A stretch of 64,000 nt of DNA from Podarcis pityusensis (taxonomy: Eukaryota): the NCBI GenBank assembly GCA_964106645.2, contig OZ067043.1; one strand, 5' to 3'. Positions within the stretch are counted from its first letter, which is position 1, and each line of letters opens with the position of its first letter. Shown piece after piece: positions 41,352 to 50,878 of this stretch. The notes beneath the pieces are model-generated. The model made no database searches, had not been told where the DNA came from, and saw only the letters and a program-made list of their open reading frames with translations. The position numbers and the translations under genes are program-made.

Positions 41352-41470
41352 CTAGTTTGGGTTTTTGCTTGCTTAGTTCATCCCAGACATGTTGAAGCTG
41401 AGTCTTTCCTACATTGTGGTGCAGATGGAAACCCAGGCTGTTAAGAGTGTGCCTCACTTTTTATCTGCAG

Positions 41471-41627
41471 ACCAGCAATAGACCATTATATCCCTGACCT
41501 TCATCACCTGAAATACGAGCTGGAAGAGGGGACTACACTGGATGGACGGCCTGTTCGATTTGGCTACAACCCCTTGGAATTTGAGAATTTCAGCTGGAGA
41601 GGATATGCACAAATGTCTTCCATCCAG
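41471..41627 (+). CDS. LAMA5: LAMA5 exon ~22 (start of L4a/IVb domain)
   Basis: cag|ACCAGC...ATCCAG|gtaggc; 157 nt; [52 protein letters not shown]; ends in phase 0. Confidence 0.96.
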
Positions 41628-43481
41628 GTAGGCCTTAACTCCCCACCTCTTTCCTTGGGCAGATAGTAAAGGCAGCTTCAAATGTTATGGATTTCACAAG
41701 AGCAAAGCACTTCCACACAGAGAAAAGGATAAAAAATATATGCATGCTGAGAAGCTGCAGTCAGCTGCAGCTACTCATCATCTGTACTCCAAATGTTCCT
41801 GCAATGAAATAATGCATGATCCATGCATGAGTTTCAAGATTTTAATATGTGTAAGTGCTTGCACTATTGGAAATATGTGGTGTTTGAAGTGACTTTCAAG
41901 ACGAGAGATCTCCTATGCATTTTACCCAAAGGGACTCCTAAAAACAGACAGAGCCCAATGCAAGCAGTCGCTCCATATTTGTGTGCATATGCTTCTACAC
42001 TGAAAGCCTGTTCGTGCTAATGTGCTCTTTAGGCTTAGAAAGAGAACAGCGGGATGATAGGAGAGGTCCCAAGTCCTGGAACCGCTTCATTATGTCAGCC
42101 TTAGTTCATTTAGGGGGAGATGGCCAGGCAGGAACTATATAAGGGGACTGCCAGTTAGAAAGACAACACACAAACAGGTCTCCTAAAGGGCTATTCTCCC
42201 TCTTCCTGTTGCAACTCTGCATAACATCTCCCTGCTCCTCAAAGGAAAGGAAAACCCTCTTTGCTTTTTCCTGTGCTGCATGTGGCTTTAGTTGCTCTTT
42301 CATCTGTTGAAGAGGGTGGCTTGTTTATTTCAGGCTTTTGTATGCTTGAATGACAAGAGAATGAGACTGTAACATCTGCTGAGCTTGCTCCCACCTGAGA
42401 TGTTGTTACTCTCTGAAATCTGGAGACCTCACAGAGAGAAAGTGTTTATGTGTGGTCTGTGTGGTTCATTTGAAACTCTCTTATATGACTTTATTCTTTA
42501 GGAGAGGGTTCTTAGATTAAAGATTATTTTTGTTTTATTTCTGCCCCTTAGGAAAATGAGCTTAAGGACAGACTTTCCTTGTTCTCTTTAAATTTTTTTT
42601 TTATGGTGCCTGCTCTCTCATTCCTTGTGCCATTGTTACAGTCCCACTCTTAGCCTTTAATAGCCAGAGGCTCACAAAAGTGCTCATTCGACAATTTAGT
42701 TACTGTCTGAAAGGTGCAAATGAACCTTTGAAGGTAGTCTTTTGTCTTGCTATAGAAACCCCCAGCTTTCTTGGAGAGAGGTACATGCCTTGCTTAGCCT
42801 TCTCGGAAATGTCAGCTTGAACTGGAGCACCACAGCTAATCCGCATATTCTGTTTGCACGTGGTTAATCTGATTTGCATGGATTCTTGATGCCAGCCCAT
42901 TGGTGTGGACAACTCCCAGTCTTTCCACTTGCATTTTCCAATCAGTTAATGTCTCAAACATGGCAGTCTTTATAAATGCCAGGAGATACAAGAGCAAAAT
43001 TAATTTTAGGCTCATAATGCCCACACATTTTTTATGATGTAGTGATGATTTTGAGATTTTTGAAAGTTTGCATGCAGTCTTAATATCACAGAGAGTTGTG
43101 TGTATGTGCACATCTGCTTTCAAGAAAGATACATGCCGTGCTTCCCCCCCCCCCCCGCTAGAAAAATAGGTGCCAGAACTCACCATTAAGTTGTTACAGT
43201 AAGTGCCACACCTTTTAACCAAAAAAAGAGAGGTGCTGGTACTGCGTACTTTTGAGTACCCCCTGAATTAAAAAAACAACAACACTGGATATAGGTGTCC
43301 TTAACCACCCATTGGCATTCCTATCCACATCTTTCTCACAATCAGACTGATGTGTAAACTTTTCCCATGTTAGTGTTAGGAATTATTTGCAGGGCCACTT
43401 TTGTGATTTTTACTTGCAAAATAGGAAGCAGCCTTCCTAAGGACATCAGAGCCCTGTTGAATCAGACCCTGTGATTTTGCC

Positions 43482-43830
43482 TAAAGGTAAAGGGACCTCT
43501 GTCCATTAGGTCCAGTCGTGACTGACTCTGGGGTTGCGGCGCTCATCTCGCTTTATTGGCCGAGGGAGCCGGCGTACAGCTTCTGGGTCATGTGGCCAGC
43601 ATGACTAAGCCGCTTCTGGCGGACCAGAGCAGCGCACGGAAATGCCGTTTCCCTTCCCGCCAGAGCAATACCTATTTACTTGCACTTTGACGTGCTTTCG
43701 AACTGCTAGGTTGGCAGGAGCAAGGACTGACTGAGCAACGGGAGCTCATCCCGTTGCGGGGATTCGAACCGCCGACCTTCTGATCGGCAAGCCCTAGGCT
43801 CTGTGGTTTAACCCACAGCACCACCCGCAT
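43482..43830 (-). mobile_element. Sauria SINE
   Basis: taaaggtaaagggacc ... ttaacccacagcaccacccgc. Confidence 0.9.
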
Positions 43831-44222
43831 CTCCTCCCCCTTTAATGGCATCTAAGCGGCAGGCCATCACTGCACCTTGTGGCAATGGGTTATGAATTTT
43901 GTATGCACTCGGTGTGCTTCTCTTTAGAAGTCATCTTCTCTCGTCTCTCCCTTTTCTCCCTTCGGCTCTTGACTATGGAATGTCTGTTTCTGGCTGGATA
44001 GATAGCCTTAGTGGAATGTGCAGCGAGTGTTTCAGAGGCATCTTTCCAGGCCATCCCATTAAGAGCAGGATGGGGCTGGCTTGATTTCCTCACCTGCTTT
44101 GGCATGCTGCTTTTGGGAGCAGGAATACGGGAGTGCTGTGCTTGAGCTGGTGGCTGGTGGCAGGTGACGGTGGAGGTTTATTTAAGGTGTGCTCTGCTTC
44201 TCTCCCCTTTCTCTCCCACCAG

Positions 44223-44361
44223 CCCAAGGTAGTGGTGACCCTCAGTGTGACCTCCCCTGACCTGTTCCGCCTCGTCTTCCGCTACGTCAACCGGGGGCCT
44301 GCAAATGTGGAAGGGAGGGTCTCAGGCCTTGAGGAAGGAAAGTTTAATGTTTGTGGCAACT
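44223..44361 (+). CDS. LAMA5: LAMA5 exon ~23a (canonical, human-like)
   Basis: cag|CCCAAG...AACT|gtaagt; 139 nt, phase 0/1; [46 protein letters not shown]. Confidence 0.95.
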
Positions 44362-44662
44362 GTAAGTGCATTTTTCACTTCTAGACTAACCCCTTTCGAA
44401 AACCAGTTGATAAAGGAGCCGACCTTTGCTTTTTCTTGCAAAGCAGCGTTTTTCTTCTCCCTCCCCAAAAGCCACCACCACCACCACTCATTTCGTAGAT
44501 TTTGGATCTCCTCAAGCAGTTTGCTCTTAGGAACCACAAAGGGTGGGGAACCTAGCGAGGCAAAGAGAGAGACAGAGAGAGAGAGACAGGCAGGGCAGGT
44601 AACAGACTCGCTGTCTGCCCTGCAATGATAATGTGCCCGATGTGCTTTTTCACCTTTTGCAG

Positions 44663-44792
44663 AACAAAGTCAAAGTCACAGTGCGGGTCAGAGAAGCGGA
44701 GATCTATCTCTTCCATGTCATCTTGAGATATATTAACTCAGGAAGTGCCACTGTGTACGGCAAAATTACAGCTTATCAGCCACGAAGGAGAG
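44663..44792 (+). CDS. LAMA5: LAMA5 candidate mutually exclusive exon ~23b (tandem paralog of 23a)
   Basis: tgtgctttttcaccttttgcag|AACAAA...GGAGAG|gtaagg; 130 nt, phase 0/1, no stop; NKVKVTVRVREAEIYLFHVILRYINSGSATVYGKITAYQPRRR; shares the KVxVT...LF...RY.N.G.A.V.G pattern with 23a. Confidence 0.85.
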
Positions 44793-45337
44793 GTAAGGAC
44801 CCCAGATTTCTCTTGTCCCCCCAATTCCATAATTGATCTGTTGTCGCGGTTTCCATTCTCAAGCTGCTCTGTGTTGCTGATCAAACAAAGCATTTTCTGA
44901 AGCAACCTATTTTCATATACTGTTCTAGAATTGAGGAGAAAGCCCAATAATTGTTATGCTTTGTATTCATACCTCTCCTCACTCAGGCTTTTGCTTAAGT
45001 GTGCCTTCAAACCAGTGAACATCCTCAGCAATTCAGTTTGTTTTGTTTTCTGCAAATGCTTATTGTATATAAAACTGTGATAATTGATCATTGTGACTGG
45101 GAAAATATGATGAGGTAGGATTTTAGTGCTAAACTGTTAAGTTACAGCTTGAGTCCCATTTTTTGAGCCTGTTGACCAGAGGATGTTAAGAGGGAATTTG
45201 TTTCTCTTTGGTGTTAAACAAGGCAAAGTAACATTTAGATGGCTTTGATCCAGCAGGCTATTATTATTATGTTCTTATTTTTCTTCCAAATCATTACAAT
45301 CGTCATTCACAGTGAATTGCATTCTGAAGAGGTGAAG

Positions 45338-45601
45338 TACAGTCATACCTCCGGTTACAGACGCTTCAGGTTGCGTTTTTTCGGGTTACGGACCCGCCGA
45401 AACCCAGAAGTATCAAACGGGTTCCTTCTGAGTTTCGGGGGTCACGCATGCGCAGAAGCGCTAAATCATGCTTTGCGCATGCGCAGAAGTGCTGAATCGC
45501 AACCCGTGCATGCGCAGATGCACCGCTGTGGGTTGTGAATACTGCAGGTTGCGAACGCGCCTCCCGCACGGATCATGTTCGGAATCCAAGCGTCCACTGT
45601 A
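45338..45601 (+). mobile_element. Tc1/mariner MITE family D
   Basis: ta-cagtcatacctccggttacagacgc ... gcgtccactg-ta; inverted relative copy at 49067. Confidence 0.8.
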
Positions 45602-47001
45602 TAGGGAGAAGACTTTAAAACAAATAAAATCGTCTATGGATTGTATTCAATGCTCACAGTAGACCCATCGAAATTAATAGGCATGGCTGACTTAGTTTTA
45701 TCGATTTCAGTGGGTGTGGTCTGAGTAGAACTTAGTTGCCTGCAATCCTGATAAAACAAACAAGCTTAACTAGATCATATCCCGTATGTCTGAAAGATAA
45801 GGAAAATATTGTTTGAACCCCGTGCTTTGATTGCAGTAGCAGTCAGGAAGGATTCCACTGGCAGCCTGTGGAATGGGATGTACTAATGGGATGTAGTTTT
45901 AGTTCTTTGCTGCTTTAGCCACACTGTGGCATATATATGCAAATGTGGAATGCAAGAAAGCTGGTCAATTTTATGTCTAGCCTGGTGCATGGTAACTCTT
46001 CCAGTTCCTCAGCTCACTTTCAAATCCTCATTCATGCTGACAGCAGAGTTAACTGCAATTGCTACCGTAGTGCTAGCCTTGAAATATTATGTTTGGGCAA
46101 TGGAAGGCTTTTCTGAAAGTGGGGCGGGGAGGCAATTTTGTTAATAGAGTTCATTTTTAGCCATATAACTTTTACCTTCAGGGGTGCCGATTTTCACTTT
46201 TATTGATTCAGAAGGGGAGCAACTCTTATCTCAATAGGCGGCTGCAGTAGCTGATTTATTAAAAAGGAATTCACGATTTAGTCCGTGGAGCACTGCATTA
46301 TAGCACTGTTGCTGGCAAAGTCTGCACAGAAGTGGCATTTCCAGGCACTGTTGGGAATGTTTTCACTGAACTTAAAAGGACATTTTTATGTCATTAAAGA
46401 GGCGCTTTTTACATGCATTTATAAAACACAAGTTTATTTCATTAAAGAAATGCAGCTAACGTATTTCAATATGAAATTTATGATATTATTTCAGGAAACA
46501 TACAAATTTAACAAATAAAACATACAAATAAGTTGAGGCCCCCCACCCCCACCCCAGCGCTTCTAGAATTGAGTTTGGCCATTCTCTTGAGCGCTCAGGG
46601 ACAAGATGCACAAGTCACCAGTGCTTCCTGTTCCTTCTGTGACGTTACCACATTGGAAATTGGAAATTGTGTTGGTTCCTGAAGTGCCGACAACTTGCTC
46701 ATCTTCTGGACCTGGGTGGGGAAAATGTGAAGTTTACCTTTTGATATGATGCTATCTGAACAGGAAGCATGAGAAAGGTGTGTAACAGCAGTGATTTTGA
46801 CCAGTAGTGACTGGTCCAATTTCAGTTCACCTTCAGCCAGCCACCAACTGCCTTCTTAGTTACAACCAGAAAGGAGTGATACTGTCCGTCAGCTTCCTAT
46901 GCCTTCGTCTCTGTGTGGTCCTTGCAGAACTCAGCAGGGAAGAAGATGGGATCTGCCTATCAATCGGCTGTAGCTCCAGTTACTGTAGGGTCCCCCTGCC
47001 C

Positions 47002-47468
47002 TAGAATCATAGAATCATAGAGTTGGAAGAGACCACAAGGGCCATCGAGTCCAACTCCCTGCCAAGCAGGAAACACCATCAGAGCACTCCTGACATATGG
47101 TTGTCAAGCCTCTGCTTAAAGACCTCCAAAGAAGGAGACTCCACCACACTCCTTGGCAGCAAATTCCACTGTCGAACAGCTCTTACTGTCAGGAAGTTCT
47201 TCCTAATGTTTAGGTGGAATCTTCTTTCTTGTAGTTTGGATCCATTGTTCCGTGTCCGCTTCTCTTGAGCAGCAGAAAACAACCTTTCTCCCTCCTCTAT
47301 GTGACATCCTTTTATATATTTGAACATGGCTATCATATCACCCCTTAACCTCCTCTTCTCCAGGCTAAACATGCCCAGCTCCCTTAGCCATTCCTCATAA
47401 GGCATCGTTTCCTGGCCTTTGACCATTTTGGTTGCCCTCCTCTGGACACGTTCCAGTTTGTCAGTGTC
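47002..47468 (-). mobile_element. CR1 LINE, 5'-truncated
   Basis: Minus ORF ...LERVQRRATKMV...YEEWLRELGMFSLEKRRLRGDMI...FLTVRAVRQWNLLP; tail tagaatcatagaatcatag. Confidence 0.93.
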
Positions 47469-48639
47469 CTCTGCCCCACAAGTCCCCAAAGGCACTAATC
47501 ACCACTGCTTTCTGATAGCACCCTCAGTCTAGGCTCCTTCCATGTGGTGGTCATTCTGACAAGGTATGAGAACTGGAATGTGAACACCTCTGGGGATCAT
47601 GTGATACACGTCTGTCGCAGATAGCTTCTGTGCCTTGAAAAGAGTTAGCTTTTATGATGGAAAAGGAGAACATGTTATAAGATCTTGGGTGTTTTAGCTC
47701 TGCTGTGTTGACACACGTTTTACCGCTGATTGTTTTATTTAGTTAGTTTTGCAGTTGGTTTCATTCCTTTTGATTTTTGGGGATTTTTTTTTTAAACCTT
47801 TTATTGTTACCTGCCCAGGGGAGAATGTTAATTGGGCCATATGCTAATGATTTAAATACAATTTATCTCCATGTTTGCTGGCTGATTTGCTTTCCTTGTG
47901 GCCAGGTTGTGCAGTGTGATGTGTGTGATACACTCAGATGAAGTGGAGGATGAGTGCATGCCCCACCCCCACCCCCAAAAAGGATCCTAACTTGATTAAA
48001 AAAATCTTTTGCTTCTTGGAAATAAATGGCTTTATTCTTAAGGCTATCTGATATGATAAGGATTGTTTGTGCAAGAGACTTCACCTAAATGCATTGACTT
48101 TGCTAACAGGGACACTTATTTCTGCTAACTTGATAATCCCTTAAATTTCCCTGAATATGTTTTCATTATTGACTGTTCTTTATTAATGATACTTTAAGGA
48201 CAGCGTACAGATTGGCCTTTATCGTCTGTGCTCTTGCAGCAATCACTTCTGCTAGTATTCATTATAGGACTGCAATCACTGAGGAAAGTCAGTATCCCTT
48301 TACTCTTTTCTCCCCGTTTGCAAGATGAATATATACCACATCTCACTGTCTGTTAAGGTTGCCCTACTTTGTGGGGGGGGGGGGGAGAGAGATGGGGAGG
48401 AGATTGGACCTGGTTCTGAAGGGGTACTATCTCTTGTTCCTGTTGTATGTCTCTCTGCAAATGTTTTGTTTGTTTGTTAGATTTATACATCACAACCTTC
48501 AGCACAGCTGCTCTCAAGGCAGTTAGCAATAAGATGAAATAATACCATCAAATGGTTTAAAAATAAATAAAACAGGAAAAGAATATTGCAAACCATGCAG
48601 GCAAAACAATTGTGTGGGTCTTTCTAATGCAATCCGCGC

Positions 48640-48942
48640 CATGGCGTGTGCTCCCGTTGTCCTGCCCCAGATTCTGCCAACCTAGCATTTTGAAAGCATA
48701 CCAGTGCAAGTAGGTAAATAGGTACCGCTATGACGGGAGGGTAAACGGTGTTTTCATGCGCTCTGGCACTCGTCACTGTCCTCCGTGTACCAGAAGCAGT
48801 TTAGTCATGCTCGCCACATGACCCGGAAAGCTGTCTGTGGACAAATGCCGGCTCCCTTGGCCTGAAAAGTGAGATGAGTGCTGCACCCCACAGTCAAATT
48901 GGACTGGACTTAACTGTCCAGGGGTCCTTTACCTTTTACCTT
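48640..48942 (+). mobile_element. Diverged Sauria-like SINE
   Basis: gtgcaagtaggtaaataggtaccgc...ttagtcatgctcgccacatgacccgg...ggggtcctttaccttttaccttt; left boundary is approximate. Confidence 0.75.
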
Positions 48943-49066
48943 TACATCATTGGAAGAGTATGACCCATCCATCCAGCTTCTTTTATGTGTTGAAGGACAG
49001 CAGCAATATAAAACAATAACAAGTAAGGAGGCATCCAGGGTACAGTAAAGATTAATTTTACTCGTT

Positions 49067-49324
49067 TACAGTGGGCGCTCGGGTTGCGAACGTGATCCGT
49101 GCGGGATGCACGTTCGCAACCCACAGCGTTTGCATCCCGCAGGGGTGCATTTGCACACGTGTGGGTTGCGATTCAGCGCTTATGCGCAAAGCGCAATTTA
49201 GTGTTTCTGTGCATGCACGACTGCTGAAACCCAGAAGTAACCTGTTCCGGTACTTCCAGGTTTTGGCGGGTCCGTAACCCGAAAAATGCAACCTGAAGCG
49301 TCTGTAACCTGAGGTATGACTGTA
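49067..49324 (-). mobile_element. Tc1/mariner MITE family D
   Basis: Approximate reverse complement of 45338-45601; TA flanks. Confidence 0.8.
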
Positions 49325-49477
49325 TTTTATATTCAGTTTATTTTGTTTTGAGTGAATGTTTTTCATCGGGGGCAGCTGTAGACATTGTTGCAAAGAATTC
49401 AGTTTTCAACAATGGATACAGAACACAGTTTTCAGCTAGAAATAACAGTGGGCTCCAAACAAGCTATGCATTCCAAG

Positions 49478-49723
49478 TATAGTGGTACCTCGGGTTAAGG
49501 ACTTAATTAGTTCCGGAGGTTCGTACTTAACCTGAAACTGTTCTTAACCTGAAGCACCACTTTAGCTAATGGGGCCTCCCGCTGCGGCTGCACCACTGGA
49601 GCACGATTTCTGTTCTCATCCTGAAGCAAAGTTCTTAACCTGAAGCACTATTTCTGGGTTAGCAGAGTCTGTAACCTGAAGCGTATGTAACCTGAAGCGT
49701 ATGTAACCCGAGGTACCACTGTA
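49478..49723. mobile_element. Tc1/mariner MITE family A
   Basis: tatagtggtacctcgggtta ... taacccgaggtaccactgta. Confidence 0.87.
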
Positions 49724-49844
49724 TACTTCGACTGTAAGCTTCCTCCTTTCTTTGCGAAGCTGAGACACCTGGATATTGCAAAGTTTGCAACATCAACCTG
49801 TTAATGGAATCTTTTGAGGGTGTGTTGAGACACAAGGTCTAGAC

Positions 49845-50027
49845 CAGGGGTCAGCAAGGCTTACCAGGAATGGGCCGGATTACTCCCTCAGAGATCCTCC
49901 ATGGGCCAGACCGGCGCAGCGCCACGCCAGAAATAGCATTTGCACATATCCGCAGCGCCAGAAATCGCTTCTGTGCATGCCCAGATGCCGAAAATCATAC
50001 CCATGGGCCTTAGGTTGCTGACCCCTG
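49845..50027. mobile_element. hAT MITE
   Basis: caggggtcagcaa ... ttgctgacccctg; perfect 8-bp TSD gtctagac at 49837-49844 and 50028-50035. Confidence 0.9.
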
Positions 50028-50400
50028 GTCTAGACACATGCATATGGAACATGGCAAGCTGCTCACCAGGTGCACATGGTCTCCTTTTCCACGAGGAAGA
50101 CGAAACCACAGAGAATTAACTTGGAAACTCTTCCTCCGTTCGACTATGGTTGCAATTTGTGGGCAGTCATTTAATTTTATCCTGATTCTAATTTTTAAGC
50201 TGTATTTTAATCAATTGTTTGATTGTGTTTTAATGTATTTGATATTTGATGTTAGCAGCCCTGAGCCCAGTCTTGGCCGGGGAGGGCGGGGTATAAATAA
50301 AAATTTACTTACTTACTTTTGAAACTCCTCGGAACCACTCCAGAAATCTCGCACACCTTCTAGATGGAAATGAAAGCTGATTTTTTCCCCCCAATTGCAG

Positions 50401-50543
50401 ATACAGAACAGACAAAGCAGATTGTATTTGTGCCCACAAAAGAGCCGGCTTTTGTCACTGTTCCTCAGAACAGCTTTGGGGAGCCGTTTGTGCTGAGTCC
50501 TAATGTGTGGTCTCTGGTCATTGAAGTCGAGGATGTACTACTG
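50401..50543 (+). CDS. LAMA5: LAMA5 exon ~24
   Basis: cag|ATACAG...CTACTG|gtaagg; 143 nt, starts in phase 1; TEQTKQIVFVPTKEPAFVTVPQNSFGEPFVLSPNVWSLVIEVEDVLL. Confidence 0.96.
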
Positions 50544-50632
50544 GTAAGGGTGGCCGTCCTCCCCTTTTCTCCCCTTTGGGTCAGGACCGTGGCGAGAAAA
50601 ACTAAGTCTTGCATTTTTACCCTTCCTTCCAG

Positions 50633-50739
50633 GATTACATGGTCCTGTTGCCCAGTTCCTACTACGAGGCTCCTATATTGCAGCTCAGAGTCTCAGATCC
50701 TTGCACCTACGGCCCATCTCCTGAACAAGTTGGTCAGAA
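50633..50739 (+). CDS. LAMA5: LAMA5 exon ~25
   Basis: cag|GATTAC...CAGAA|gtaagg; 107 nt; [35 protein letters not shown]. Confidence 0.96.
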
Positions 50740-50878
50740 GTAAGGCTTCCATTTTCATCTTTGCTATAGGATTAGATCGTACTGGAGCCGATTTCCTTGG
50801 CTCAGATTTCCAGTACTTCATTCTAGCAGACACCTTTATACTGAGAGAGAGAAAAAAGCTATTCCTCTTCCTTTCTAG

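Follow-up and report, generated by a model that had tools for sequence, protein, structure and literature searches.

Two adjacent homologous exons in the LAMA5 gene of the lizard Podarcis pityusensis, one of them resembling LAMA3, raise the question of when the pair arose and how its two members came to be distributed between LAMA3 and LAMA5. A preliminary description of the window (the whole stretch of 64,000 nt analysed here, from contig OZ067043.1) had proposed that the duplication predates the LAMA3/LAMA5 split, with LAMA3 keeping exon 23b, mammalian LAMA5 keeping exon 23a, and the present lineage keeping both. The explanation that we consider quite probable is that an exon pair of an ancestral laminin alpha-3/5 gene was inherited by both paralogues, that later losses occurred separately, and that double inclusion of the two exons ends in decay of the transcript.

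The LAMA5 gene occupies the + strand, with about 28 exons inside the window and 81-100% identity to Podarcis LAMA5 records. The Podarcis flanks were placed in the LAMA5 clade of a flank tree, and Pfam returned the domain order of alpha-3/5 chains, identifying the gene as the LAMA5 orthologue. Exon numbers are nominal, the first LAMA5 exons falling outside the window. The upstream constitutive exon 22 (41471-41627, + strand) starts the LF region and ends in phase 0, and the downstream constitutive exon 24 (50401-50543, + strand) begins with A. Between them, on the same strand, lie exon 23a (44223-44361, 139 nt) and exon 23b (44663-44792, 130 nt), separated by an intron of 301 nt (44362-44662). 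The splice sites of 23b are canonical (pyrimidine-rich CAG acceptor and GTAAGG donor), and together with the translation they bear out the earlier reading of 44663-44792 as the exon encoding the 23b peptide. Both exons run from phase 0 to phase 1 and are 3n+1 in length, so that either alone preserves the frame. The reading frame is open for 22-a-24 and 22-b-24 and meets stops in 22-a-b-24 and 22-24; after skipping of both exons the stop falls in the next exon, and the a-b junction itself creates TAA.

The peptides of these neighbouring exons are identical at 14 of 41 positions. Exon 23a carries the hallmarks of what we call type a, a Ser-Pro motif and an end of Cys-Gly-Asn plus the junction codon, and 23b those of type b, namely a 2-residue insertion, a basic C-terminal loop and no Cys. 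With A as the first base of exon 24 (50401-50402), the junction residue is Tyr after 23a and Asp after 23b instead of the usual Cys and Gly, a feature common to Podarcis, Zootoca and Rhineura records.

The ungapped resemblance of 23b to LAMA3 proposed in the preliminary description was reproduced with a fetched primate-type LAMA3 (P0202, which shares a 90% cluster with named primate LAMA3s): 18 of 38 residues were identical, and VILRY and G.IT.Y were present. Identity to 23b was 16/38 in mouse lemur LAMA3, 25/43 in snake LAMA3 and 21/43 in an elephant-shark LAMA3-clade protein, the last two without gaps. LAMA5 counterparts of 23b reached 36/43 in turtle, 37/43 in bird and 27-28/43 in cartilaginous fish. 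The proposed match of 23a to mammalian LAMA5 also held (32/46 against mammal-type LAMA5), and 23a was identical to its turtle counterpart at 43 of 46 positions and to a catshark LAMA3 isoform at 24 of 46. Since 23a also reaches 15/40 against P0202 with one gap, identity alone discriminates weakly between the two exons, and the weight of the argument falls on the tree and the indel. A PDB sequence search with 23b gave no match, and a protein search with 23b alone was insensitive, returning one protein among four candidates and missing a Gekko record.

The LAMA3/LAMA5 split is probably a product of the early vertebrate genome duplication. An exon tree of 27 vertebrate rows and 45 columns, a subset of 38 rows with close relatives thinned and with three LAMA3-a rows, separated types a and b with support of 100/100 and grouped the exons by type, not by gene; the exon itself is short. 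Exon-level phylogeny was the check that the preliminary description had named, and in it 23b joined LAMA3 b rather than 23a. Forcing LAMA5 a and b together cost 28.5 log-likelihood units and was rejected (AU p=0.000494). In a 54-row exon tree the a/b split recurred in 200 of 200 bootstrap trees; the a clade had support of 94/83, with the bootstrap unsettled. When the exon was left out, a flank tree (27 rows, 447 columns, quick method) recovered a LAMA3 clade (95) and a LAMA5 clade (99), with tunicates and then amphioxus outside both. The exons thus group by type and their flanks by gene, and therefore the duplication predates the LAMA3/LAMA5 split.

Profiles and an indel agree with the trees on this age. 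Profiles built from LAMA5 only assigned all three LAMA3-a exons to a and all 11 LAMA3-b exons to b. The 2-residue insertion (Tyr at 23), scored by presence or absence of position 23 only, occurred in 12 of 13 LAMA5-b exons, 9 of 11 LAMA3-b exons and a rough lamprey model, and in none of 14 type-a exons or 56 more distant segments. A Cys pair within the last six residues was found in 13/14 type-a and 0/24 type-b exons. Exon 23b is orthologous to the LAMA3 b exon, and the antiquity claimed for the duplication is upheld. The lamprey model (Lampetra planeri, P0095) has the type-b insertion, and the profiles do not separate a from b in it (16.4 vs 19.0 bits).

Among LAMA5 genes, both types are widespread. 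With a b-type Varanus region as query, 764 protein hits were obtained, and the best 120 were typed as 76 b, 32 a and 12 both; a b-type query favours b, and the 76:32 ratio is uninformative on usage. The 12 records with both exons are frame-repaired gene models, which are evidence of the a-then-b order and not of double-exon proteins. LAMA5-b was present in chimaera, sharks, bichir, sturgeon, many teleosts and lungfish, as well as in axolotl, turtles, alligator, birds and squamates; spanning sharks to birds, 23b is not restricted to one recent lineage. Varanus, Callorhinchus and axolotl each have a and b LAMA5 isoforms with shared flanks, most a/b isoform records being automatic annotations. 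In two frogs, Xenopus and Bombina, only type a was found, and in lungfish only type b, which may reflect further losses. Lizard LAMA5 does keep both exons, as had been proposed, but this is the general state of non-mammalian LAMA5 and not a property of one lineage.

LAMA3 genes also carry both types. In the catshark Scyliorhinus torazame, LAMA3 isoforms X1 and X2 are of type a and X3 of type b, with the same flanks, and the lama3 models of the teleosts Denticeps and Pangasianodon are of type a; the flanks of all three genes fall inside the LAMA3 clade. Type-b LAMA3 records came from bichir, sturgeon, anchovy, cod, snake, bird and primate. The Callorhinchus protein XP_007895420.1 (P0045) is named 'alpha-5-like' in its source, yet its flanks lie in the LAMA3 clade. 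The proposal that LAMA3 kept b when the genes separated is contradicted by the catshark gene with both exons and by the two type-a teleost models. Its counterpart, that mammalian LAMA5 kept a, stands in so far as the mammal-type LAMA5 records in hand are of type a, and falls as a partition at the gene split.

Two other histories of the pair were weighed against common inheritance with later losses. Tandem duplication could have occurred independently in LAMA3 and LAMA5, with the similarity of the b exons being convergent or ancestral: an exon that is short and rich in beta strands is under constraint, the single exons of many invertebrates obtain similar scores with the two profiles, and convergent tandem exon duplication has a section of its own in Martinez-Gomez 2022 (PMC9741552). 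However, the AU test (p=0.0005) largely refutes this history, and the derived b insertion and the a-type Cys pair with the Ser-Pro motif are common to both paralogues, which leaves it very improbable. We give even less credence to a partition at the gene duplication itself, in which LAMA3 would have had only b from the start and LAMA5 both. Every named amniote LAMA3 record sampled is indeed of type b, but type a occurs in the catshark, Denticeps and Pangasianodon genes with their LAMA3-clade flanks, and this history is refuted unless these genes are mis-assigned.

Under the preferred history of common inheritance, tandem duplication of one exon in the ancestral alpha-3/5 gene created an either-or pair ahead of the separation of LAMA3 from LAMA5, as the tree and the indel show. 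Both exons then passed to both paralogues, as is shown by sharks, where LAMA3 and LAMA5 each have a and b isoforms. Going by the sampling, LAMA3 a would have been lost somewhere on the line to amniotes and LAMA5 b on the line to mammals, so that human alpha-3B and alpha-5 may be two frozen states of one old switch. Complementary single exons are not the state of sharks or of lizard LAMA5, and the mammal-type protein records are consistent with them: in hand, LAMA3 is of type b and LAMA5 of type a. From these sequences the partition looks like a late, staggered reciprocal loss that is complete only in mammals on limited sampling, and reciprocal loss in mammals is likely. It should be noted that the absence of mammalian LAMA5-b is drawn from the best 120 of the 764 protein hits, where no record was mammal-named (4/120 had no name), and from a few ORFs, and not from genome inspection; the mammals sampled include no monotremes or marsupials. 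For amniote LAMA3, the lack of a is drawn from a single snake model, a bird model that is partial and a few mammal records.

Two mammal-type ORFs bear on these losses. In a LAMA5 ORF, the reading runs from 23a to exon 24 across ~174 nt and then on through the next intron; if this is contiguous DNA, there is no room in the gap for a 130-nt exon and two introns. In an ORF of the mammal-type LAMA3 cluster (P0108), the tail after exon 22 starts with Pro, not with the Val of intron read-through, contains Thr-Ser-Pro and stops after 33 residues. This tail, chosen by eye ahead of scoring and represented by protein sequence only, scored 5.0 bits on the a profile; 4 of 1000 shuffles scored as high, and the best of 47 other non-exon tails reached 1.5. 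It is a weak candidate for a 23a relic still spliced after exon 22 in mammalian LAMA3.

RNA contigs showed how the lizard exons are used. Four runs were mapped to 41400-50800; the RNA status of X1 and X2 was guessed by the tool and is supported by exon joins. The contigs of X1 and X2 included pieces of exons 22, 23a and 23b, and repeat-free intron bins had little or no depth; in the raw-read runs X23 and X24, coverage of the exons was close to nil. In X1, contig 3, the only full multi-exon contig, consists of 28 nt of intron 22 and 23a joined to 23b, exon 24 and exon 25; the intron sequence at its start means that it may represent a transcript still being spliced. In X2, separate contigs covered exon 22 (depth 10.4), 23a (6.3) and 23b (5.1), and the exon-22 piece is shifted by 3 nt at its end, in keeping with a 22-b join; the contig ends fit an a-b join. 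No a-24 join appeared among the X1 and X2 contigs displayed, which are a minority of the rows in joint tables dominated by repeats, and contig assembly drops rarer splice paths. Both exons are used in transcripts.

Since the a-b join is present in RNA, splicing by itself does not make the two exons strictly exclusive. Double inclusion would be physically possible since the intron between the exons is 301 nt long and each exon is 3n+1. A stop far upstream of the last exon, such as the TAA of the a-b junction, triggers nonsense-mediated decay by general rule. Given that the a-b join seen in RNA carries an immediate stop, exclusivity is probably finished by decay of the a-b transcripts, nonsense-mediated decay being the most likely route.

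The squamate records suggest that 23a may be losing ground in lacertids and Rhineura. Among the 34 records tallied, 26 were of type b, seven of type a and one had both. The roles may have changed further in lacertids, with 23b as the working exon and 23a mainly a poison exon that joins 23b and triggers decay. The a-b join in X1, and the contig ends in X2 that fit it, would agree with such a role, as would the type-b state of 14 of the 15 listed members of the Podarcis cluster, the change from Cys to Tyr at the Podarcis junction, the loss of the other Cys in Anolis carolinensis and one decayed-looking squamate-type a exon. In these last two records (P0046 of A. carolinensis and the squamate-type P0080) the type-a exon is without its first Cys, and P0080 also has a deletion. 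However, the 43/46 identity of 23a to its turtle counterpart points to constraint at the protein level, contig 3 of X1 may be an intermediate and contigs drop the rarer paths, and the a exons of Varanus and Eublepharis keep both Cys residues. We regard the role change as unlikely, and take 23a to be one member of an either-or pair whose double inclusion probably ends in decay.

The intron separating the exons contains two candidate regulatory elements. ACTAAC (44385-44390, + strand), 24 nt past the 23a donor, is a candidate QKI site or branch-point-like element, which we take to fit both the QKI motif and the branch-point consensus. ACTAAY occurs 18 times on the + strand of the 64 kb, and 0.08 occurrences are expected per 301 nt. 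Steric exclusion through a branch point at 44385-44390 is not favoured, as many AG dinucleotides separate that site from the 23b acceptor and the a-b join exists. A purine-rich tract (44560-44605, + strand) is a candidate conserved regulatory element; at its end is a cryptic donor (CAG/GTAACA at 44599), which lies 64 nt ahead of 23b. The lizard frame at this tract ends in RQAGQ, and in all four bird double-exon models the linker before 23b ends in (R/Q/E)AGRQ. The same intron holds a 100-nt AG..GT candidate (44499-44598) that ends at the cryptic donor, and a comparable donor immediately upstream of 23b is used in bird ab initio models. Two pairs of inverted repeats, ~70-93% complementary, also lie in the region: 45335-45601 with 49067-49327, located between 23b and exon 24, and 43483-43717 with 48674-48936, whose copies lie on either side of the two alternative exons and could anneal in the pre-mRNA.

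Structural models indicate what the exon choice changes in the protein. AlphaFold models of the a and b forms of Varanus, and not of the window's own sequence, had pLDDT values of 86.1 and 84.6. The modelled exon forms three consecutive strands of the first sandwich in the LF region plus two loops. The module matched CBM35 domains best (Z 15.1, rmsd 2.4, 123 aligned) and the laminin beta-2 LF region (PDB 5LF2) with Z 13.9 (rmsd 3.2, 140 aligned); Foldseek gave weaker, consistent matches for the same module. Its likeness to the CBM35/CBM6 beta-sandwich and to beta-2 LF is one of fold only and does not imply sugar binding. The net charge of the last 12 residues was -2 to 0 in 11 LAMA5-a and +2 to +4 in 13 LAMA5-b exons. 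In the models, a neutral-to-acidic Cys-x-Asn-Cys loop (a), predicted with low confidence (65), is swapped for a short basic loop in LAMA5-b. Our best guess is that the choice acts as a switch on the protein surface, with a loop closed by a disulfide in one state and a basic loop that would bind polyanions in the other; matrix or glycan binding may change with it.

The pair may extend beyond vertebrates. Five of six Styela clava alpha-5-like isoforms have an exon ending in CPNC, the only terminal Cys pair among the 56 distant segments, and X4 has a different exon with Gly at the junction. These junction residues match those of vertebrate LAMA5 a (Cys) and b (Gly). The best tree placed three tunicate exons together (77/88), and grouping Styela a with vertebrate a was not rejected (p=0.41). 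The LAMA5 profiles fail to assign the Styela exons (10.2 vs 10.4 bits; 18.0 vs 14.6), and Styela b is without the 2-residue insertion. A shared origin of the tunicate and vertebrate pairs is plausible. Amphioxus, a hemichordate and two echinoderm clusters contributed one record each. A metagenome scan aimed at vertebrate host DNA yielded six loci, of which the four readable ones were invertebrate-like with one exon copy each within the fetched DNA. Two of these (L001:10001-10300 and L003:342-750) have no intron at the exon 22/23 boundary, and L002 and L004 have a phase-0 intron at the vertebrate exon 22/23 position. We tentatively entertain, at somewhat less than an even chance, a single ancestral switch of tunicates and vertebrates, older than the vertebrates, that alternates a disulfide loop with a plain or basic one. 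Both paralogues would have kept this switch in operation until each became fixed in one state in mammals, and at least one LAMA3 of a mammal would still splice in a decayed 23a.

The pair belongs to a known kind of system, in which homologous either-or exons become divided among paralogous genes. Separation of mutually exclusive homologous exons after gene duplication has been described for CALU, MARVELD3, CACNA1S/1F, the FYN family and U2AF1 (PMC4494069). Like laminin, the cases of Abascal et al. 2015 combine an ancestral pair with an exon tree ordered by type; their paralogues end up with complementary exons, as is likely for laminin in mammals, and MARVELD3 in that set shows a staggered, lineage-wise separation (PMC4494069). 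The laminin case differs in that separation appears to have come long after gene duplication. Laminin is absent from the table of 11 cases in that paper (PMC4494069), whose set starts from pairs in human genes and would not include a pair that, as appears to hold here, is intact in neither human paralogue. Ancient tandem exons in a human catalogue of tandem duplicated exon substitutions (PMC9741552) and in a multi-species study of mutually exclusive exons (PMC7954323, Lam et al. 2021) likewise swap part of one folded domain. No LAMA term was found in the main text or text supplements of these two papers, full gene tables of which may lie elsewhere, or in section 7 or the searchable supplements of PMC4494069. 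Laminin alpha isoforms are known from the alpha-3A/3B promoters and from LaNt proteins arising by intron retention (PMC9788559). Like the exon pair, these add isoform variety to the short arm of LAMA3/LAMA5; however, they truncate or omit domains, whereas the pair swaps a homologous piece of LF at near-constant length (PMC9788559). Literature searches over titles and the starts of abstracts, with subscription papers and splicing databases outside their scope, found no description of the pair, which is already in automatic annotations and apparently undescribed in print.

The basement membrane has alpha-5 and alpha-3B among its core chains, and in this pair reciprocal loss between two old paralogues appears to have been delayed. 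Catalogues of either-or exons that start from human genes would overlook it, as neither human gene appears to keep both exons. If the single ancestral switch is real, part of the difference between laminin-511 and 3B would trace to an old splice choice, and the alpha-3/5 LF region, which is little understood, would gain two natural states that can be tested against each other. The LF-module versions with the Cys-pair loop and with the basic loop, both found in LAMA5 of fish, amphibians, birds and lizards, form such a pair, and studies of lama5 in fish or chick may average over two proteins.
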